A stretch of 20,098 nucleotides of DNA, taken from the IMG/VR virus record IMGVR_UViG_2534681674_000022, positions 1 through 20,098 of that record. One strand, 5' to 3'. Of the stretch, positions 8,907 through 17,517 are shown one piece after another. The notes under the pieces are model-generated. The model was not told the DNA's origin. It did no database searches and was given only the letters and a program-made list of their open reading frames with translations. The translations under genes were made by a program, and so were the position numbers. Every line of letters starts with the position of its first letter. Within the stretch, counting starts at the first letter, position 1. This DNA comes from a virus (lineage: Duplodnaviria > Heunggongvirae > Uroviricota > Caudoviricetes).

Positions 8907-8932
8907 AGCCGGGTTACTCCCGGCTTTTTTTC
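8907..8932 (+). terminator. Intrinsic terminator on the plus strand
   Basis: AGCCGGG-ttact-CCCGGCT followed by TTTTTTT. Confidence 0.55.
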
Positions 8933-9215
8933 ACCGCTGCCAACCAATAACCTGAAATAACCCCATTTTCGGGTGATACCAGCGAGTCCCTCGCGGTTCT
9001 GCTTCCTCCATAACCCGATAAAAAGCAGCCATAAACGGTTCCACAGCAACAATTGCGCGACGTGACAACAATCCGTCCGGCGTCATGAACTCATGGGTGT
9101 CTGTAGGAATTTGATAGGCGTTCACCAGATTGCGGCATTTATCATCTGACAAACCGGTTTTTGCTTTCAGTTAGCGTCATTGAAACAGTTTCTCATGGTC
9201 ATTGATGGAGAAGGT

Positions 9216-9617
9216 ATGAAGGATAGGATCGTCGAAATACTACAATACACCCTGAAAAAAGATTCTGGATCTGACTTTCATCAGATCATGCATGAAGTCA
9301 GTGTTCCACTTCATACCCGGAACGGTATCGATGTGGTTGCGTACGGAAACTCTCTGCAGGATGCTGACAGCTACTACCTCATACGGGCTTTTGAAAGTGA
9401 AGAACAGATGAAAAGCGTTCTTGATGATTTCTATGCGAGTGCGGGTTGGCGCAGTGGCCCACGAGAAGCAATCATCAGTCGAATTGAAGTAAGCCTTAAG
9501 TCAGTATTGACGCTTCCGCAAAATGCTGTGAATGAGTTGAGGAAAAAAAATGACAAGAACAGAAATAGTAAAGGCAGTGAACCGCCCCGGTTTTCCTGGA
9601 GAGTGTTTTATCTGTGA
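9216..9617 (+). CDS. Hypothetical small protein with its 3' end replaced by IS629 sequence
   Basis: ATG at 9216 preceded by GGAGAAGG. From 9578 the reading frame continues into the IS end (last 13 codons are IS-derived). Confidence 0.4.
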   Translation: MKDRIVEILQYTLKKDSGSDFHQIMHEVSVPLHTRNGIDVVAYGNSLQDADSYYLIRAFESEEQMKSVLDDFYASAGWRSGPREAIISRIEVSLKSVLTLPQNAVNELRKKNDKNRNSKGSEPPRFSWRVFYL

Positions 9618-9619
9618 AC

Positions 9620-10507
9620 TCAGGCTGCCAGATCATCGTTTCTGATGGAAGCATAATAAGCTTTTTCTGCTTCTGCCGGAGGGATATGACCCAGCCTTCC
9701 CAGCAATCGTCGATTGTTATACCAGTCCACCCACGTGAGTGTGGCCAGTTCCACTTCTGCACGGTTTTTCCAGCTCTTACGGTGTATTACCTCCGCTTTG
9801 TAAAGACCATTGATGCTCTCCGCCATCGCGTTGTCATACGAGTCACCTGTACTCCCTGTTGATGCCAGCAGTTTTGCTTCTTTTAGTCGCTCCGTATAGG
9901 CCAGTGATACATACTGAGAACCTTTATCACTGTGATGGACTGTGCCGGACGGCCGACGGGCCCACAACGCCTGCTCCAGTGCATCCAGCACGAATGTCGT
10001 TTCCATAGACGATGAGACTCGCCACCCCACGATACATCCGGCAAACACATCAATGATGAACGCCACATAGACGAAGCCCTGCCATGTGCTGACGTAAGTA
10101 AAATCAGCCACCCACAGCTGGTCAGGACGTTCTGCCACGAACTGACGGTTTACGCGGTCGCCTGCGGAAACGGCTTTCCGGCTGACGGTAGTACGGACCT
10201 TTTTACCCCGGAGAACACCGGCAAGTCCCATAACCGCCATGAGGCGCGCCACTGTACATCTGGCCACCCTGATACCTTCGCGTAACAACTGGCGCCAGAC
10301 TTTACGCACACCGTACACCTGATGATTTTCATCGTATACGCGCTGTATCTCTCTCTTCAGCCAGTCATCGCGCTGAGCACGGGCACTGCGTTTATCAGGA
10401 TGATGTCGCTGTTGCTGACAGTGGTAATACGTTGACGGGGCAATATGCAGTTCACTGCATACCGGTCCGACCCCGTACTGCTCACGCAGCTTATCCAGCA
10501 GCGGCAT
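9620..10507 (-). CDS. IS629 OrfB, 295 aa, intact
   Basis: Full-length DDE transposase ORF in the -1 frame relative to OrfA. Confidence 0.9.
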   Translation of the reverse strand: MPLLDKLREQYGVGPVCSELHIAPSTYYHCQQQRHHPDKRSARAQRDDWLKREIQRVYDENHQVYGVRKVWRQLLREGIRVARCTVARLMAVMGLAGVLRGKKVRTTVSRKAVSAGDRVNRQFVAERPDQLWVADFTYVSTWQGFVYVAFIIDVFAGCIVGWRVSSSMETTFVLDALEQALWARRPSGTVHHSDKGSQYVSLAYTERLKEAKLLASTGSTGDSYDNAMAESINGLYKAEVIHRKSWKNRAEVELATLTWVDWYNNRRLLGRLGHIPPAEAEKAYYASIRNDDLAA

Positions 10508-10833
10508 TATTTTTTCCAGAGGCGGTCGAACTCCGCCTTCGCAAAATAAGCGGAAGCCTGGCGAAGGATATCGTTACTGCGGCGCAGTTCACGATTTTCA
10601 CGTTCCAGCTCTTTCAGACGCTGACGTTCAGCGGTGGTGAGTCCACCATCACCACTCCCGGTATCCCGCTCATGCTGACGAACCCACACACGCAGAGTCT
10701 CTGGTGTACAGCCAATCTTTGGGGCAATGGAACAAATTGCCGCCCATTGTGAGTCATATTCGCCCTGACTTTCCAGAACCATACGAACTGCCCGTTGACG
10801 GACCTCGGGGGAAAAACGTGTATTTTTAGTCAT
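10507..10833 (-). CDS. IS629 OrfA, 108 aa, intact
   Basis: Identical translation to OrfA of copy 2. Confidence 0.9.
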
Positions 10834-11043
10834 CCTGTTTACCTCTTTCTCAGGGAGTTTAGTCTCCAGGATTCCCGGGGCGGTTCAGTTGTCAATCTGT
10901 TTGGCAGAAGGTGAGGGAGTTCCTGGTTACTGTACGAATTGCGTACAATTGATGGGTATTGTTGATGCACCTAGTTCTTGTATTGTTTACTATAATTATT
11001 GAGGTAAATTTTCGTGCCTGTATTACTCAGAGGGGATTCAAAA

Positions 11044-11640
11044 ATGGCTGTAATTCCAATGTCTTACTCCCCTGCTACTGTAGCTCGTCGTTTTTCGATA
11101 CTGGATGGAGTAACTATTCAGGGCGTGCTTTACCAGATCATCTGGGATCCAAAGACTCCGTTCGCTGCGGTAATCGAAGCTGCACCTTCTGTTATTGATG
11201 GTGATATTCGCCATAAAGTTGTTGCCACTCTGGAGCTTCAGCGTCGCTCACAGCTTGAAGGGGTGTTTGTCCGGAAATTCTGGGAAGAGCAGGACGTCGC
11301 TCAGATTGAAGGGATTGTTGTTGATGGGGCTGTACGTGATGTTGGCCTTGCGACGTTTGTATATGAAACGGTAGCCACAAAAGCGGGCGTTATACTATTA
11401 AGTGATAACGAGCAATATGAAGGAGGTAAAGCCCTCTGGCAGCATATAGCGCGTCGTTCAACGAATCTGAAAGTGTTTATTTTAGATACTGATTCCGCAC
11501 GGTATTATCCGTTTGATGGCGATCGGATCTGCTATGACGGGGAAAGTATTCCTGAATCAGAAATCTGGAGTGAACATCCTGATCGAAATAAACACGGTGT
11601 TGTTCTTGTGGCCGAATCTGTTAATGGAAAAGCCGCATAA
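11044..11640 (+). CDS. Hypothetical protein, 198 aa, unknown function
   Basis: ATG at 11044 with AGGGGA ribosome-binding site 7 nt upstream; a perfect TATAAT at 10991-10996. No recognisable motif; RDVGLA could be a GNAT-like motif A but this is weak. Confidence 0.45.
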   Translation: MAVIPMSYSPATVARRFSILDGVTIQGVLYQIIWDPKTPFAAVIEAAPSVIDGDIRHKVVATLELQRRSQLEGVFVRKFWEEQDVAQIEGIVVDGAVRDVGLATFVYETVATKAGVILLSDNEQYEGGKALWQHIARRSTNLKVFILDTDSARYYPFDGDRICYDGESIPESEIWSEHPDRNKHGVVLVAESVNGKAA

Positions 11641-11700
11641 TTTGCCAGCCGCATCGTATTCTTGGAACTCTGACAGACCTGAGAGTTGGCAGAATAAACG

Positions 11701-11724
11701 GGGGATAACAGCTCGGTTATCCCC
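11701..11724 (-). terminator. Hairpin between convergent genes, likely terminator for the 568-aa gene
   Basis: GGGGATAAC-agctcg-GTTATCCCC (9-bp perfect stem) directly after the stop at 11733; followed on the minus strand by GTTTATTCT. Confidence 0.5.
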
Positions 11725-11732
11725 TCAGAACT

Positions 11733-13439
11733 CTACTGCTCGATCACGCATTTGCTCCATAAAGGTTGGATCGCATGTCGATCTTTGCTGTAGGGGAATC
11801 TTTTATTTTTTTTCTTCTGTTCCATCAGTAATGTGTCGATTTCGTCGTTGACAATGCGCGTCACAGCGTGACGATAACGGTTTAGCGATGTATCACTGAT
11901 ATCCTGAGGCAGGCATAAACTGGTATCGGTTTTGATGCGTTCATTTATGCCATCTTTAACTTTCCATTTCAGACCATCAGGAACCCCTTCCTGCAAATCA
12001 TAGGCTTTCAGTCCCGCAAGTCGTACAACAACGTCAATCTTCTCTGTTCGTATTGTTTTATTACTTACCAACAAAACTTTATTAGTTTCATACCATTTTT
12101 CAAATGATTCCAGCCGTTTTACTGCATTTATGATGTTATTCCTAATTCCAGAAAATTCAATAGAATCTGTGTATTTCATTTTCTTTTCTTCAGCATTAGG
12201 GGCTATTCCAGGATAGTCAATATCATTCTTTACAGACTCCAGATATGCATATTGCAGGCAGCCTGAAAGATGAATTGCTGCATCCTGCAGAGTATTAGTG
12301 CGAATCAATCTAAGGAGTTCATCTCGTTGTATGGTTATCTGACAATAATCCCTTTCCCATGCGGTCGTATTCTCGGTTTTTTCATCTTTATCCGGAGTAA
12401 CTGTTGCGAATTTCCATGTGTACTGGATGAAATCTGTTGGTTTAAAATATGCCATGCTTGTTTTTACCCAACCGCAGATTTCAGCTGCATAAATATGGAC
12501 ATAAATATTGTACATTGTCTTTATTTCATGCTGACTGGCGACTGAGAACATATTTTTTACGAATTCTGTACATCCGATTATCGATAGTCGTTCTCTCAGT
12601 CTGTGCACATCTTCAGTATCTGACTTCCTGCAGTCCCAGGGCCATTTGTTCTTATTCTCAAAACAGGAAAGCCATTCTGGAATATTTTGCTTATACTGGT
12701 AGAATTCGTTGACCGCCAGACCAATGGTTATGGCAAGTATTGTTGATTCATCTATTTCATGATACTGCTTCAGGTGTGCCAGCAACTCTGAGGTGCAGGA
12801 GTGCGCAACAGACAGATCCTGATGGCAATACCCCTGCCGGGCTTCTGCTGGAATTGGTGAACTCCAGGCTTTACATTCAGTCAGAATATTAAATAAATCA
12901 TCTCCTACAAACTTTGCCAGTTCAGGTGTTTTCCAGGTTCTTGGTCCCAGGCTGAAAAAGTCTGGTGTTGTCTGTACCTCTTGCATCGCTCCCCAGCTTT
13001 TCAGGCTGATATTTCCTTCATCAAAGCCATTGTATAAATGGCACATAACATTAAGCGCATTAGTAAGAGCAGTGGGTTGAGACGATGTAGATGCGCCAAG
13101 AGCAAAATTTTCTTTTCTTTGTTTGTTAAAAATTTTCTGGAGCTCTGTATTATCACGCAATGCCAAGAGAACTTTGTGCTGTTCTTCAAACCAGGGGCGA
13201 TATTCTGGATCCTGATATAGCTGACGTGCCTTAAAAATGAGCAAAAGGAGTTGTTCGGAAACAGCCTCATATATGCCAGGGAATGGGCGGGATTCTCCGG
13301 ATAAAATACGATAGTACTGATTTTGTTGCATAGTCTGATTTACCATTATGTAAGAAGGTTTCCTTTTGCCGCATACCGGATACTGGCAGTTAAAATCGAT
13401 GTTATCTCCTGAAAGGATACGTTGATACTGAGTCTGCAT
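11733..13439 (-). CDS. Large orphan protein, 568 aa, unknown function, low-GC gene
   Basis: Long uninterrupted ORF in an AT-rich island. N-terminal tandem peptide repeat QYQRILSGD / QYYRILSGE. No family recognised by eye; start codon uncertain (no clear ribosome-binding site at the first ATG). Confidence 0.6.
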   Translation of the reverse strand: MQTQYQRILSGDNIDFNCQYPVCGKRKPSYIMVNQTMQQNQYYRILSGESRPFPGIYEAVSEQLLLLIFKARQLYQDPEYRPWFEEQHKVLLALRDNTELQKIFNKQRKENFALGASTSSQPTALTNALNVMCHLYNGFDEGNISLKSWGAMQEVQTTPDFFSLGPRTWKTPELAKFVGDDLFNILTECKAWSSPIPAEARQGYCHQDLSVAHSCTSELLAHLKQYHEIDESTILAITIGLAVNEFYQYKQNIPEWLSCFENKNKWPWDCRKSDTEDVHRLRERLSIIGCTEFVKNMFSVASQHEIKTMYNIYVHIYAAEICGWVKTSMAYFKPTDFIQYTWKFATVTPDKDEKTENTTAWERDYCQITIQRDELLRLIRTNTLQDAAIHLSGCLQYAYLESVKNDIDYPGIAPNAEEKKMKYTDSIEFSGIRNNIINAVKRLESFEKWYETNKVLLVSNKTIRTEKIDVVVRLAGLKAYDLQEGVPDGLKWKVKDGINERIKTDTSLCLPQDISDTSLNRYRHAVTRIVNDEIDTLLMEQKKKNKRFPYSKDRHAIQPLWSKCVIEQ

Positions 13440-13680
13440 CTACTAATAAAACGGATGCCTGCCGTGTTTTCGGGGTGATACAGGGTATACCTGAGAATGC
13501 ATCTATTATTACGATAATTTTCCTCCAGCGTGTTGTAACAATTATAACACCCGTCAGATCTCCTTCTTATTCCTCCTCCTGAATATTCCGATCTGTTGAA
13601 GCTGTTGTTGTCATTTCAATGACAGGTAAAATGCCTGGCTCTCTTTCCCTCCTATTGTGAATAGTAAAAACTAATTTATT

Positions 13681-13700
13681 TTTGTGATCTTGGTCACAAA
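13681..13700. promoter_or_regulatory. Palindromic operator candidate in a divergent promoter region
   Basis: TTTGTGA-tcttgg-TCACAAA (7-bp perfect inverted arms) in the 635-bp AT-rich region between the 568-aa gene and alpA. Confidence 0.3.
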
Positions 13701-14075
13701 TTTAACCCCCTCCTTCTCTTCTTTACTATCACTGTCAGAAGTTTATCTGAGCATAACATGAAGTCGATACTAGATTCATTTTGTGTCATTGTCAACAGTG
13801 AAAACCACTTCTTGGCTTAAAATCATTGTTTGTAATGTGCATTATTGGTTGTTTTGTTGCTAATCAACACATATTGACCTATGAGTTGGCTTGTGAGTCA
13901 AGTATTGTTTTATTTGTCTTAACTTGACTTGATTTGTTTTCGTATGTACCTTGCTGTCCATGGGTGTTCTGTGAGCAATATGACAACGGAATCTCCACTA
14001 TGGATTGTCCAGGAAATTCAGTCATTTCATGCTCACAACTGAGATAAGAATCATTGATATATCAGGAGGGCCGTC

Positions 14076-14303
14076 ATGTGGGTTCCATTAACAGATGAGC
14101 AACGTTCAGTAATTTTGAAAGCCTATGGGACTGAGGGTGACAGACTGGTACGTGAAAAGGAACGAAAAGAGATCACCTCAATTTCCCGTTCACAAGCCTG
14201 GAAACTTGAACGAGAGGGAAACTACCCACCGCGTAAGACTATCGGAAAGAAATCTTGTGGCTGGTTACTAAGTGACCTTCTCTGGTGGATTCAGACCAGA
14301 TGA
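14076..14303 (+). CDS. alpA: AlpA-family phage/integrative-element transcriptional regulator, 75 aa
   Basis: AGGAGG ribosome-binding site 6 nt upstream. C-terminal motif ITSISRSQAWKLEREGNYPPRKTIGKKSCGWLLSDLLWWI matches the AlpA helix-turn-helix signature. Confidence 0.7.
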   Translation: MWVPLTDEQRSVILKAYGTEGDRLVREKERKEITSISRSQAWKLEREGNYPPRKTIGKKSCGWLLSDLLWWIQTR

Positions 14304-14398
14304 ACTGTTTGTATTTTCAGTCTGAATAGCAGCTATTTTCGCTATTGTAGCGGAAATTGCTGCAACTTTACTAACCCATTAATGAAAATGGAGGCTTT

Positions 14399-15847
14399 AT
14401 GTGCTTACTAGCACCAGAAAATCCTTATCCGATATATGCACTACCACCGCTGGTGAGAAATGCAATAATTGAAACTCAACAAAATACACAGGCTCCTTTG
14501 GCTATGGTGGCGACATCCGCATTAACAGCGATGTCAATTGCCTGTCAGAATCAGATTGACGTGTGCAGACCTGGAAATTTACGTGGGCCCGTTAATATTT
14601 ACTCTCTGATTCTGGCTGATTCCGGTGAAAGGAAAACGACCGTGGATAAAGTGTTTATGAAAGCATTTTATCTCAGGGATGAAGCCCTGGCGGAAGAATA
14701 CGCGAAACTGGTTGAGAATTACAGTACAGAAAAGGAAATATGGGAGCAAAAACAAAAAGCGCTGGAATCAAAATTTCATAAAGAGATTCGTGCCGGTAAA
14801 GATTACAAGGCAACAGAATCAGAGCTTGAAACGCATCTGAATAACTCTCCTGTTCCGCCGCAGATACGTCGAACAATTTTTAATGATACAACGATAGAGG
14901 GAATGTTAAAATATTACTCCGATAGCAATCGTTCTTTTGCTCTTGTATCCAGTGAAGGGGGAGTAATTTTTGACAGCCGGGCCATGAGTAAACTGGGAAT
15001 TATTAACACTTTGTGGGATGGAGGTTCTCTTTTCATCGACAGGAAATCATCTCCCGGAATTAATTTGAAGGAGCCAAGACTGACGATGTCGGCGATGATT
15101 CAGCCTGATGTTTACCACAAAGGTTTTTGTACGCGAAAAAAAGAACTTGTGAAAACGTCAGGACATCATGCAAGGTTTTTGATGTGTCAACCAACATCAA
15201 TGCAGGGGACAAGGATAATAACCGGAGATAATTATTCATCACAGTATCAGGAGTTATTTGATAAGAGGATCAATGAACTTATTGATGAAAGTCTGGCGAT
15301 GAGTGGTGAACGACGTTGCCTTCACTTTTCTCCTCAGGCTGCCAGAATCTGGACGGATTATTACAATGATGTGGAATCGAAACTGGGGGGATTGGGGCCT
15401 TTAAGACATTGTCGGGAATATGCTGCCAAAAATGCAGAGTATATGGCAAGACTGGCAGGACTTATTTACCATTCGAGCGGTGAAGAGGGGGAGATTTCCC
15501 CTTACACTGCAGAAATGGCGAGAGAATTAGCAATATGGTACGGTAATGAGTATATGCGGTTGTCTAATCCGTTAACTTTTGACAACACTGCTCTGACCGT
15601 ACCTGTGCGACTCATTCCAGAGGAGCTTGAACTTTTCAACTGGATAAAAAGCTATTGCATTGAGAAGGGGATCCTCTGTATGAAAAAAATGACATTTTAT
15701 AGCGTGGTCCGAACCGTTTCCGGAAAAAGGATAAAATCAACTGGTTACTGGATTTACTGTATGAACAAAACAGAGTTGTACCGGTTATTGAGGGAAAAAC
15801 GTTGTGTGTCGCACCTAACTTTGACCTCTGAACGACTTAATCGTTGA
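14399..15847 (+). CDS. YfjI-like protein (DUF3987 family) typical of CP4-57-like elements, 482 aa
   Basis: GGAGG ribosome-binding site. Position immediately after alpA and size match CP4-57 yfjI. Family assignment is from memory, not from a search. Confidence 0.4.
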   Translation: MCLLAPENPYPIYALPPLVRNAIIETQQNTQAPLAMVATSALTAMSIACQNQIDVCRPGNLRGPVNIYSLILADSGERKTTVDKVFMKAFYLRDEALAEEYAKLVENYSTEKEIWEQKQKALESKFHKEIRAGKDYKATESELETHLNNSPVPPQIRRTIFNDTTIEGMLKYYSDSNRSFALVSSEGGVIFDSRAMSKLGIINTLWDGGSLFIDRKSSPGINLKEPRLTMSAMIQPDVYHKGFCTRKKELVKTSGHHARFLMCQPTSMQGTRIITGDNYSSQYQELFDKRINELIDESLAMSGERRCLHFSPQAARIWTDYYNDVESKLGGLGPLRHCREYAAKNAEYMARLAGLIYHSSGEEGEISPYTAEMARELAIWYGNEYMRLSNPLTFDNTALTVPVRLIPEELELFNWIKSYCIEKGILCMKKMTFYSVVRTVSGKRIKSTGYWIYCMNKTELYRLLREKRCVSHLTLTSERLNR

Positions 15848-15858
15848 GTAACATATAG

Positions 15859-15883
15859 TCTCCTCCGTTACTTGCGGAGGAGA
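15859..15883 (+). other. Stable hairpin directly after the DUF3987 gene stop
   Basis: TCTCCTCCG-ttacttg-CGGAGGAGA (9-bp perfect stem), not followed by a clean T-tract. Confidence 0.35.
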
Positions 15884-16079
15884 TTAATGCCATGACCATG
15901 TCAGTGTTGTATTACAGAACTTTGGTACAGGTCAGTCAGTAAATATAACTGGTGTAACTACTATTTACTATTGGATAGAGTGTTGTACAGGATATTGCTG
16001 GCTTTGGCCTTAGATAAGGAGGGCACTTCATTGTTTTCGTATTCAATAAATAATTAAGGTTAATTAGTATTATTAGTGG

Positions 16080-16400
16080 AAGTTATGTTATCTGTTATGT
16101 TGTCTCTTTTTATCGTAATGTCACTCCTCTTTATGCTGAGTATTCTGTATGTGCGTAATGCGTCTATCCCCATATACTACAGTGTGGTGGTGTATGGAGT
16201 TTAGTTATGTGTAAATTATGTTACTACACTCATAGCGTAATATTGAGAAAGTTAATCCACTGAATGTATGTCTGGTTTGTATTTAACACTAGTTACGTAC
16301 CAGAACACTATTAGAGTATATTGTCTTTAGTTCGTATGTTATATCTCCGTTACAGTTTATAAGTATGGGTAAATATAATATTTTCTGTATGAAATAATCT
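16080..16400. repeat. AT-rich non-coding region with iteron-like GTATG/TTATG reiterations (candidate replication origin)
   Basis: At least 6 GTATG and 4 TTATG occurrences in about 320 bp (for example GTTATGTTATCTGTTATGTT at 16083). About 950 bp with no convincing ORF, upstream of the HUH Rep gene. Confidence 0.4.
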
Positions 16401-16641
16401 TCTTATTGTGAGGTTAAATATCTGTAGGCTCTCTCTGCAGAGTCTCTGTTTTTACTTAATGGTTCGGCAATATTAATAGCGATGTTGCCTGTGGCTATTC
16501 GATAGCTGACTTTTGTGAAGATCAGATTACTTCCTGTAAGTGATTGAATGGTACTTCCTTAAACTTAATTCTATGAGGTGTGTTTTTGCCATTGTAATTC
16601 TTACTGGTCCTCTGTTTAAGAGAGCCTCACTGTATTCTGAA

Positions 16642-16669
16642 GTATTACCTCATTGTAATGAGGTAATAC
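16642..16669. promoter_or_regulatory. Perfect 12-bp inverted repeat with 4-bp spacer (operator or origin hairpin candidate)
   Basis: GTATTACCTCAT-tgta-ATGAGGTAATAC, about 130 bp upstream of the Rep ATG. Confidence 0.45.
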
Positions 16670-16799
16670 CAAACAGTTTTATCAGGTTGTCTGTGCTGCT
16701 GGTTACCTCGTTTATTAATGCCGCGGTACGGCGTTTCTGTACTCTCAGTATTTATGTAATTCCACTTTCCTGTCAGTTTTATAAAGTAAGGACTATAAA

Positions 16800-17363
16800 A
16801 TGTATAATGCTAATCCCAATTACGAAATGGACTTCATGATTCTGAAAGACGTGAATGAACACATGGAAGGTCTGTTTCAACGTTTTTCTAAACTGTTACC
16901 TTTCAGAATTGATTTTGCCTACAGGAAAGACACGCCCAGTTTTGGTCATTCCTGTAGGCACAGTATGTGTATTGAAATGCACCGCTTACTTAGTGAAACC
17001 CAAACGATGCTGGCGGGATATTACTGGGTAATGGAATATACGTCAAACAAGGGACTTCATATTCATTTTATCGGCTACCTGGATGGGCAACGTCACAACA
17101 AATCTTATCGGATATCCAGGCAACTGGGAGATATCTGGAGGCGGATCACGGAAGGGGAGGGTTATTTTCACCTGTGCAGGGCTAAAGACAAATACCCGGT
17201 GCGTATCGATCACGTAATTCACTATAGTGATAAATCTGCGGTAGACGACTTACGTTACGCCCTTAGCTATCTGGCCAAACAGGATCAGAAAGAACACGGT
17301 ATTATTCTGAGGCGTAGCAGGCTTCCCGAAAAAAGCAACCGGGGCCGACCACGACATAACTGA
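16800..17363 (+). CDS. HUH-type replication initiator (inovirus Gp2 / YfjJ-like family), 187 aa
   Basis: AAGGA ribosome-binding site 7 nt upstream. HUH motif in GLHIHFIGY and a downstream Tyr-rich motif YALSYLAK. Confidence 0.5.
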   Translation: MYNANPNYEMDFMILKDVNEHMEGLFQRFSKLLPFRIDFAYRKDTPSFGHSCRHSMCIEMHRLLSETQTMLAGYYWVMEYTSNKGLHIHFIGYLDGQRHNKSYRISRQLGDIWRRITEGEGYFHLCRAKDKYPVRIDHVIHYSDKSAVDDLRYALSYLAKQDQKEHGIILRRSRLPEKSNRGRPRHN

Positions 17364-17517
17364 ATTACAGCTGTATTAGGTATTAGAATTAAGTTTCTGT
17401 AAGTTGTTGGGAGGTGCTTGAGTTAATAGGCAGAAGAGGGCGGGGCGCTTTGTCATCAGTGTAGGGGACCCGAATTTCTGCCGTGGTGCCTCAGTGGATC
17501 AGATACAGGTAACGAAT

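Follow-up and report, generated by a model that had tools for sequence, protein, structure and literature searches.

The two convergent genes that lie between an insertion sequence and alpA in IMG/VR record IMGVR_UViG_2534681674_000022 (positions 1 to 20,098, the whole 20,098-nt stretch analysed here and referred to as the window) are best explained as two independent accessory (cargo) genes that are neighbours in the integrase-proximal slot of a CP4-57-like integrative island that has decayed. We put the probability of this explanation, in which a 198-aa protein would be GNAT-like and a 537-aa protein would be gated by CRP and have a role in conflict, at about 0.5. The features concerned are:

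9578-10887, minus strand: IS3-family copy (self-BLAST of the window; orfA/orfB ORFs at 10507-10833 and 9620-10507)
10888-10914, plus strand: last 27 bp of a P4/CP4-57-type tyrosine integrase gene, the remainder of which is gone
11044-11640, plus strand: 198-aa gene, encoding a GNAT-fold acyltransferase-like protein (phrog_7522)
11701-11724, no strand assigned: G+C-rich hairpin GGGGATAAC...GTTATCCCC that separates the convergent genes and is probably a terminator (terminator-like scan; sequence read directly)
11733-13346, minus strand: 537-aa gene (RefSeq start at 13346; homologue alignment)
13347-13439, minus strand: in-frame upstream extension that makes the 568-aa ORF, outside homologue coverage
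13347-14075, no strand assigned: divergent control region of 729 bp, AT-rich, without any ORF of at least 50 aa, between the 537-aa gene and alpA
13683-13698, no strand assigned: palindrome TGTGATCTTGGTCACA, TGTGA-N6-TCACA, a perfect match to the CRP consensus
14076-14303, plus strand: alpA, AlpA-type HTH excisionase/regulator (annotation; phrog_2790, E 2.7e-23)

The initial annotation had described convergent ORFs of 198 and 568 aa. Both are present, at 11044-11640 on the plus strand and, as longest ORF, at 11733-13439 on the minus strand, but the large gene encodes 537 aa. Aligned homologues, one over-called Proteus protein excepted, begin at ATG 13346, which is almost certainly the true start and is also the one that gives the 537 aa of RefSeq; the extension upstream of it is most likely a 5' untranslated leader rather than coding sequence. 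A nucleotide-level duplication of the 5' end was looked for as the cause of the 568-aa ORF and was not found. For the small gene GTG 11014, which would give 208 aa, is an unlikely start, since ATG 11044 has a GGTGA Shine-Dalgarno sequence 7 nt upstream, homology to the thrW loci begins at 11041 and RefSeq uses the same ATG, although longer forms are called in many assemblies. Both ORFs are real genes under purifying selection, with dN/dS values of 0.04-0.16 in the small gene and 0.23-0.52 in the large one. Both are accessory rather than core, being carried by about 12-15% of complete E. coli genomes.

The window contains four IS3 copies according to self-BLAST, and the one at 9578-10887 truncates the island integrase and, on the left, joins the island to prophage DNA that is unrelated to it; window positions 1-9580 and 9578-19703 map to different chromosomal places. 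Homology of the window to two loci with an intact integrase (L018 and L001) starts at 10888, and the annotated end of that integrase, locus position 11015, corresponds to window position 10914. Downstream, alpA heads the rightward module of the island, consisting of alpA, yfjI, a Gp2-type gene and a primase-helicase gene, an order that matches that of K-12 CP4-57. A P4-type integrase, AlpA, YfjI (DUF3987) and a YfjJ/Gp2-type gene are found in the order by which we define a CP4-57-like island; this assignment is based on PHROG matches and on two annotations, one of strain 2013C-4974, whose locus is identical, and one of K-12 CP4-57. The island is decayed: of the integrase only 27 bp are left in the window, yfjI carries an annotated frameshift, and an IS interrupts the primase gene.

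The placement given in the initial annotation, with an IS on the left and the alpA regulatory region on the right, agrees with these borders, and its proposal of a cargo slot is borne out as well: the genes occupy an accessory slot of a mobile island, the order int, 198-aa gene, 537-aa gene, alpA is found repeatedly in E. coli and E. albertii, and the corresponding int-alpA slot of K-12 CP4-57 is occupied by an unrelated gene, yfjH. In Proteus mirabilis a PvuRts1I-like type IV restriction gene shares the slot. The position between integrase and AlpA regulator is the same as that of the cargo of CP4-57-type elements and of the hotspots of P4-like satellites, PIMEs and ICEs, and the slots of these related elements have variable contents, among them restriction and other conflict genes. 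The 537-aa protein differs from the cargo of CP4-57 in that it is unrelated to YfjH; homology of its family to K-12 YfjH or to a Vibrio luxR-like neighbour was rejected at an hhalign probability of 0.2%. The AT-richness that had been remarked upon for the large gene is real (40.7% GC) but modest, being the same as that of the remaining island; the 198-aa gene has 46.2%, the IS 53.3%, the intergenic region 38.1% and yfjI 42.2% GC.

That the two genes form a working pair, as the initial annotation supposed, is not supported by their distributions or by the decoupling of their alleles in E. coli. Of 5426 E. coli genomes, 806 carry the 198-aa gene, with 129 of its copies on plasmids, and 690 carry the 537-aa gene, which is almost never found on plasmids and has no homologue among 50,697 phage records. 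Homologues of the 537-aa gene that lack the 198-aa neighbour are found in Vibrio, Aeromonas, Proteus, Atlantibacter, Citrobacter and Siccibacter. Within E. coli, 198-aa alleles that are 99-100% identical pair with 537-aa alleles that are only 58% identical, and dS amounts to 0.4-1.2 for the 537-aa gene, which tracks alpA, and to at most 0.23 for the 198-aa gene, which tracks int. As judged from these comparisons the two genes are probably not a working pair.

The absence of any recognisable motif that had been reported for both proteins is confirmed for the large one only; the 198-aa protein has a GNAT alpha/beta core fold and a GNAT motif A. This motif is the Q/R-x-x-G-x-G/A pyrophosphate-binding loop that follows strand beta4; in the 198-aa protein it reads R98-D-V-G101-L-A103, the R-x-x-G-x-A form of the acyl-CoA pyrophosphate-binding loop, and residues R98, D99, G101, L102 and A103 are invariant among 18 homologues of 67-96% identity. 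The match to Pfam Acetyltransf_1 (E 0.059, 14.1 bits) does not reach the gathering cut-off of 20.7, a departure from the GNAT superfamily to which the 66 N-terminal residues held in common with phage P1 PmgF can be added. Sub-threshold GNAT matches were obtained for 12 of the 18 homologues, with a best E-value of 0.021, and the family has no match among PDB sequences. Motif and predicted structure together suggest a divergent, GNAT-fold acyltransferase-like protein with a putative acyltransferase activity. GNATs of mobile elements include phage Mu Mom and the AtaT/TacT toxins. Unlike the latter, which have an adjacent small antitoxin gene, the 198-aa gene has no adjacent co-transcribed small antitoxin gene, whether RHH or other: upstream, a gap of 129 bp separates it from the end of the integrase gene and the IS, and downstream follows the convergent 537-aa gene.

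Residues 4-66 of the 198-aa protein are 45% identical to P1 PmgF (pairwise E 6e-16). The PmgF family, phrog_7349, matches only the N-terminal third (E 1.3e-11) and phrog_7522 the entire protein (E 8e-128). PmgF, a protein of 98 aa described as 'putative morphogenetic function', corresponds to the N-terminal part only and lacks the region with the acyl-CoA motif. In the P1-like phages SJ46 and RCS47 the gene that follows bplB, where P1 has pmgF, encodes a full-length homologue (89% identical); in these phages and in 673R5 the 198-aa gene occurs alone and replaces P1 pmgF. It also stands alone, beside an anti-restriction gene, in the leading region of an F-like plasmid. A second homologue search, made from the family alignment, gave near-identical sequences among the matches listed and added no diversity. 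Literature searches on pmgF and on leading-region acetyltransferases yielded nothing relevant, and no publication naming either of the RefSeq accessions of the two proteins was found.

The 537-aa protein belongs to a rare orphan family without detectable relatives, with 41 clusters among 1.84 billion proteins. It is soluble and mainly alpha-helical, its structure is predicted with confidence, and the polar residues E31, Q32, R41, D109, R170, Y173, H175, D450, S484 and R490 are invariant in the family. Neither the protein nor 23 family members and C-terminal fragments match Pfam, NCBIfam, PHROGs or PADLOC; a profile search against PDB sequences gave a chance match only (E 0.28), and Foldseek of the model against BFVD gave nothing at an E-value of 0.001 or better. 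Judged by the model, the protein apparently has a new fold. In some lineages of other genera the homologue is accompanied by a divergently transcribed gene encoding an acidic protein of 135-150 aa, which is absent from E. coli. For the acidic or Gly-rich partners that distant relatives have, tblastn found no counterpart in the window, consistent with the lack of sizeable ORFs in the control region, and a PADLOC search of the partner genes beside distant homologues found no real match.

In an alignment of four alleles, the control region varies from one island lineage to another, and it does so in parallel with the 537-aa gene and alpA on either side. It contains a promoter-like site on the minus strand at 13795-13767; an Rfam scan of 10800-14500 found no credible RNA element. 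The palindrome is 344 nt from the ATG of the 537-aa gene and about 385 nt from alpA, upstream of both, and is the only perfect TGTGA-N6-TCACA match in the window, where 0.01 would be expected by chance. Perfect or one-mismatch palindromes are found upstream of most sampled members of the family, across genera, at a distance of 311-383 nt in E. coli and of 20-25 nt in other genera. The arms are invariant, the spacer is variable and the flanks are A/T-rich. The palindrome was rejected as an RNA hairpin, the stem being weak and the arms being invariant rather than covarying. As in a cAMP-CRP operator, both half-sites are matched perfectly or with one mismatch, which points to CRP as the putative binding factor. 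The base preceding TGTGA is T in 10 of 12 sites; in the CRP consensus that position is A. What sets most genera apart from class I/II activating CRP sites is that the palindrome is centred just upstream of the start, a repressing position.

Homologues of the 537-aa gene are found in a variety of settings. In Vibrio the homologue lies between int and a luxR-like/alpA module in a PIME-like element (bioRxiv 10.64898/2026.01.12.698999); elsewhere it accompanies a type IV restriction gene in an island that adjoins smpB, the position of CP4-57 in K-12, lies between TraC and TraU in a conjugative transfer region, neighbours a umuC-like gene or the core genes cobB-nagK, or is carried by small chromosomal islets next to mnmE. 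Citrobacter, Siccibacter and Atlantibacter have the family in islets, and its E. coli hosts include river water, frog, pig and poultry isolates and strain MRE162. Roughly an eighth of complete E. coli genomes have the gene, among them STEC of serogroups O157, O121 and O111, from which the closest alleles come. At thrW two different alleles are intact despite an IS2-associated loss of everything upstream, the IS bordering them directly at -283 and -85 relative to the ATG, and these copies have neither alpA nor the palindrome. We conclude that the 537-aa gene is a horizontally mobile, self-contained cassette with its own control region.

The explanation that we favour would work as follows. The 198-aa gene travels in several kinds of mobile element, namely island integrase modules of E. 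coli, P1-like phage-plasmids and the F-like plasmid, and its product may use acetyl-CoA to acylate a target of the host or of a competitor to the benefit of the element, for instance in establishment or counter-defence. A palindrome-binding factor, most simply host cAMP-CRP, would gate expression of the 537-aa gene; in most genera a protein bound to the palindrome, immediately ahead of the ribosome-binding site, would repress. The 537-aa protein itself would serve in conflict between elements, as phage or mobile-element defence or as addiction, rather than in housekeeping of the island. Since neither protein has a match among the 5027 models of PADLOC-DB v2.0.0 (0 families at E-values up to 1), it is genomic association that makes a defence role for the 537-aa protein plausible. 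Only tentatively, and as something we hold to be possible at odds clearly below even, do we extend this to the family as a whole, which would then act in conflict or immunity as a module of one protein, previously unrecognised and with a new fold, joined in some lineages by an acidic partner, silenced by a CRP-type operator and spread as a cassette through integrative islands and through mobilizable and conjugative elements of Enterobacterales, Vibrionales and Aeromonadales.

An unlikely alternative, though the strongest competitor, is that the 537-aa protein acts on the island as regulator or sensor, itself binding TGTGA-N6-TCACA and controlling the divergent unit, which in E. coli is alpA and in other genera consists of small partner genes. 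The genes that face the 537-aa gene across a control region of 280-730 bp with the conserved palindrome vary but are always transcribed divergently from it, in E. coli the 537-aa gene co-diverges with alpA and the intergenic region, and we read the invariant S484 and R490 in a C-terminal helix as a pattern that resembles an HTH recognition helix. With its orientation relative to alpA, its long control region and alleles that diversify with the island lineage, the E. coli gene can be likened to the LuxR-family regulator of PIME1 and to Stl, the master repressor of SaPIs. In PIME1 elements a LuxR-family regulator is divergent from alpA and essential for excision (bioRxiv 10.64898/2026.01.12.698999). 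Unlike these regulators, however, the 537-aa protein has no detectable HTH, no HTH family being found at E-values up to 10 for full-length sequences and C-terminal fragments of 10 members, and in other genera it is located away from alpA, in unrelated elements and islets that have neither alpA nor integrase. Vibrio already has a separate luxR-like gene divergent from alpA, the thrW copies persist intact without their supposed targets, and the identity of the palindrome with the host CRP consensus offers a simpler explanation.

Somewhat less probable still is a two-component anti-phage system in which the GNAT protein would be effector or modifier and the 537-aa protein sensor, or the reverse. 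It would account for the nearly constant adjacency of the genes on E. coli chromosomes (about 728 places with the pair against 732 and 718 places of the single genes), in a fixed convergent arrangement and with alleles of 70-100% nucleotide identity, for their joint retention as sole remnant of the island at thrW, and for a slot that holds defence genes in related islands. Against it stand the decoupled alleles, the wide occurrence of each gene without the other and the shared failure to match PADLOC, and convergent transcription precludes co-expression as an operon. The initial annotation also considered a type III secretion effector of pathogenic E. coli, which appears very improbable for the 537-aa protein. 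Its closest alleles do come from STEC, the gene is AT-rich and horizontally acquired, and the small acidic neighbour in other genera superficially resembles an effector chaperone; this neighbour, however, is missing in E. coli, hosts of the family extend to environmental and animal isolates and to islets of other genera, the gene sits in conjugative or mobilizable elements, the conserved operator is of CRP type rather than part of a virulence regulon context, and no similarity to known effectors exists in PDB, Pfam or NCBIfam. Distribution and operator would instead fit a mobile cytoplasmic cargo cassette.

For the two independent cargo genes that we prefer, the consequences differ. The 198-aa protein offers a plausible acyltransferase identity for the long-unexplained 'pmgF' locus of P1, and its gene is a candidate establishment or counter-defence gene common to phage-plasmids, leading regions of conjugative plasmids and islands. 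Even if neither gene plays a part in conflict, treating the 'pair' as a two-gene system, in annotation or in experiments, would be inadvisable. The 537-aa protein is a good candidate for experiments, with a confident model that has no match, a conserved and testable control element and a frequent occurrence in E. coli. If it serves in defence or addiction, it would add a new protein family to the repertoire of integrase-proximal hotspots, and, if the proposed control is true, expression of a conflict gene would be tied to the cAMP-CRP state of the host.

The two convergent open reading frames described in the initial annotation were found at its coordinates, the larger one in its longest reading. 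They lie in a CP4-57-like island with the following features (window coordinates):

Features of the island and its surroundings
1-1231, 2576-3886, 9578-10887 and 19697-20098: four copies of an IS3-family element, 98-99.8% identical, two of them incomplete at the ends of the window
11044-11640 (+): small open reading frame, 198 aa
11733-13439 (-): large open reading frame, longest reading, 568 aa
13683-13698: perfect palindrome TGTGATCTTGGTCACA, the sole such site in the window, 0.01 expected by chance
14399-15847: yfjI-like gene (DUF3987; phrog_2373 "DNA helicase"), frameshifted in the identical RefSeq locus
17494-19731: 745-aa primase-helicase (NCBI name "TOTE conflict system archaeo-eukaryotic primase domain"), cut by IS3 at 19697

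STEC chromosomes carry DNA identical to the two-gene region, and RefSeq names the proteins of these loci WP_000268401 (198 aa) and WP_000248065 (537 aa), each a "hypothetical protein"; a literature search found no paper naming either accession. All but one of 31 aligned homologues of the large protein, the exception being an over-called Proteus protein, start at the second in-frame ATG, 13346. The large gene therefore encodes 537 aa, not the 568 aa first assigned, and 13347-13439 is most likely leader sequence. Neither protein has a hydrophobic segment, and both are predicted to be soluble. Purifying selection acts on both genes in E. coli (dN/dS is 0.04-0.16 in the smaller and 0.23-0.52 in the larger). 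The large gene had been called AT-rich, and its G+C content (40.7%) is indeed below that of the 198-aa gene (46.2%) and the IS (53.3%), but it is no outlier within its own island (38-44% in the remainder), so its AT-richness is that of the island.

The island is decayed. Strain 2013C-4974 has, in this order, nfeF, a P4-type integrase gene split by IS3, the 198-aa gene, the 537-aa gene (reverse), an AlpA-type HTH gene and, to its right, yfjI (frameshifted), an inovirus-Gp2-type gene, a primase-helicase pseudogene and IS3. This is the organisation of CP4-57 in K-12 (intA, yfjH in reverse, alpA, yfjI, yfjJ, abpBA), except that yfjH occupies the slot held here by the 198- and 537-aa genes. YfjH was considered as a relative of the 537-aa protein and rejected, the proteins being unrelated. 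In the window, the IS3 copy at 9578-10887 leaves only 27 bp of the integrase gene and fuses the island to prophage DNA of another chromosomal place. In the closest genomes, window 1-9580, a prophage region with TerB, ash and SASA esterase genes, and window 9578-19703 map to separate chromosomal places. No genome of the collection holds the window as a single piece, and therefore this strain carries an IS-mediated rearrangement at 9578-10887. With its integrase lost, its yfjI-like gene frameshifted and its primase-helicase cut, the island is therefore no longer able to excise or replicate.

In the 198-aa protein, for which no recognisable motif had been reported, R98-D-V-G101-L-A103 is invariant in the family alignment and corresponds to the R/Q-x-x-G-x-G/A acyl-CoA loop. 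Pfam yields only a sub-threshold Acetyltransf_1 match (E 0.059) over the motif A region, a match that 12 of the 18 members of the family share. Over its full length the protein matches phrog_7522, and the stretch from residue 4 to 66 shares 45% identity with PmgF of phage P1. Three P1-like phages, SJ46, RCS47 and 673R5, have 89%-identical homologues of the 198-aa protein in place of pmgF after bplB, and phage homologues of this type account for the 129 plasmid-borne copies in E. coli. A 31%-identical relative occurs in a Ralstonia jumbo phage. An F-like Enterobacter plasmid (L014 4882-7606) carries a 201-aa homologue (75% identical) beyond traM and an SLT gene, three genes from an Antirestrict-domain (ArdB/KlcA-type) gene; from the layout of F-like plasmids we take this to be the leading region, which enters the recipient first and in which anti-defence genes cluster. 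No antitoxin-like gene accompanies the 198-aa gene. We conclude that it encodes a predicted GNAT-like acyltransferase borne by mobile elements, a putative new and divergent member of the known GNAT superfamily. P1 pmgF itself (L002, NC_005856, 4995-5291; SJ46 counterpart L003 4965-5597) encodes 98 aa with a "putative morphogenetic function" and its match to the 198-210-aa GNAT-like protein that SJ46 and RCS47 have at the same position is confined to the N-terminal third of the latter; P1 PmgF may be a shortened version without the acyl-CoA motif.

For the 537-aa protein the reported lack of a motif held, with no family match in Pfam, NCBIfam, PHROG or PADLOC, and a profile search of PDB sequences found nothing. 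A word-index search gave 32 clusters, all gammaproteobacterial and about 500-560 aa, and when 1.84 billion representative proteins were searched exhaustively with a profile, only 41 clusters emerged, about fifteen of them full length and none fused to another domain. Scanning one genome per species by pattern, a method that undercounts, showed the family in E. albertii, Citrobacter murliniae, Siccibacter colletis, Proteus terrae, Atlantibacter and Phytobacter. Ten polar residues (E31, Q32, R41, D109, R170, Y173, H175, D450, S484 and R490) are invariant down to 20% identity. In none of the searched libraries is the family characterised, and the protein appears to have a new fold. A C-terminal helix-turn-helix was suspected; profile searches of C-terminal fragments gave no support.

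Neighbourhoods of the 537-aa family (partner-gene coordinates are those of each compared locus)
Clade A: E. coli, E. albertii; alpA, control region, 537-aa gene, 198-aa gene, int
Clade B: Vibrio, Aeromonas, Proteus, Siccibacter, IMG/VR contigs; 540-aa gene with divergent acidic 135-150-aa protein (L004 7245-7658, L008 7274-7720, L009 7203-7652, L036 5179-5631, L037 5234-5674)
Clade C: Atlantibacter, Citrobacter, Phytobacter; gene with divergent Gly/Ala-rich 107-aa and 88-aa proteins, islet beside mnmE (L005 7064-7669, L020 1974-2588, L022 350-964, L035 and L038 about 5040-5640)

The two-gene Clade B cassette occurs in a PIME-like mobilizable element, in an island adjoining smpB that also carries a PvuRts1I-like restriction gene, in a conjugative transfer region (where TraC and TraU flank it), beside a umuC-like gene and beside the core genes cobB-nagK. 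In Vibrio, Proteus, Aeromonas and Siccibacter alike, the acidic partner (pI about 4.1) runs divergently from the 540-aa homologue in every case, with 65-76% identity from genus to genus; it has no family match and no counterpart in E. coli, and could be an inhibitor, an antitoxin or a DNA mimic. The Gly/Ala-rich Clade C partner (104-107 aa) has a glycine-zipper or microcin-like composition. Leaders of the Clade B and C partner genes have sequence blocks in common, a G+C-rich hairpin and AAATAAATCAAATTA, the partner proteins being unrelated. This pattern fits a self-contained mobile cassette rather than a regulator dedicated to one island type.

Most sampled family members have TGTGA-N6-TCACA upstream, perfect or with one mismatch. 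Its distance to the ATG is 311-383 nt for E. coli alleles; in the other genera it is 20-25 nt, which puts the site directly before the ribosome-binding site. The arms are invariant, the spacer is variable and the potential RNA hairpin is weak; the palindrome is therefore a putative protein-binding DNA site. Its sequence equals the CRP consensus, and CRP is known from all host genera, thus making CRP the simplest candidate binder; the position of the site suggests repression. Alternatively, the 537-aa protein itself may bind it. A second copy with one mismatch, TGTGAGCAATATGACA, lies at 13970-13985, some 95 nt before alpA begins, and is not significant alone (the window has two sites that depart from the palindrome at one position or none, 0.78 expected). 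Among sigma-70-like sequences in the region, TTGACA-17-TAGTAT (13795-13767, minus strand) scores best, at 10/12; it is directed towards the 537-aa gene and, if used, would give a transcript with the palindrome and a leader of about 415 nt. Overall, promoter-like sites are not in excess in this region.

On E. coli chromosomes the 198- and 537-aa genes are nearly always neighbours, at 728 places, against 732 places for the former and 718 for the latter, and E. albertii has the same layout. Two different 198/537 alleles also lie directly after tRNA-Thr at thrW in E. coli (L011 9325-9720, L013 9325-9520) without an integrase; on the other side an IS2 end abuts 283 nt or 85 nt before the 537 start codon and has deleted the palindrome together with alpA and all remaining parts of the island. 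These truncations are independent and both end before the 537 frame, and survival of the genes, at two loci only, is suggestive of retention by selection. IS2 could also provide an outward promoter. The two genes initially annotated as a pair are nevertheless probably independent, since each is widespread alone, their alleles are decoupled and they converge on a hairpin (11701-11724) that separates them. All chromosomal copies of the 198-aa gene share at least 90% nucleotide identity, whereas 537 alleles are only 60-80% identical in 556 of 690 genomes, and loci with 99-100% identical 198-aa proteins hold 537-aa proteins 58% identical. Values of dS for the 537-aa gene (0.4-1.2) resemble those of alpA (0.5-1.7), and those of the 198-aa gene (at most 0.23) resemble integrase (0.12), which places a recombination boundary between the 198- and 537-aa genes. 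Their pairing is probably incidental, and a genuine two-gene system in E. coli is improbable.

Our main reading, at a probability of about 0.5, is of two independent cargo genes, in which the 198-aa protein would act as a GNAT-like acyltransferase serving mobile elements and the 537-aa orphan would be under CRP-operator control, with a probable conflict function. A defence role for the latter, suggested by association only, is tentative. That it regulates the island is rather unlikely: its divergent arrangement and its co-divergence with alpA would agree with this, but no HTH is detectable in it and its family is also found in other contexts. The type III effector proposed as an alternative to defence is highly improbable.

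Through the 198-aa GNAT-like protein, P1 pmgF gains a plausible identity. The 537-aa family is a well-defined unknown, frequent and experimentally tractable, and its conserved operator makes it directly testable.
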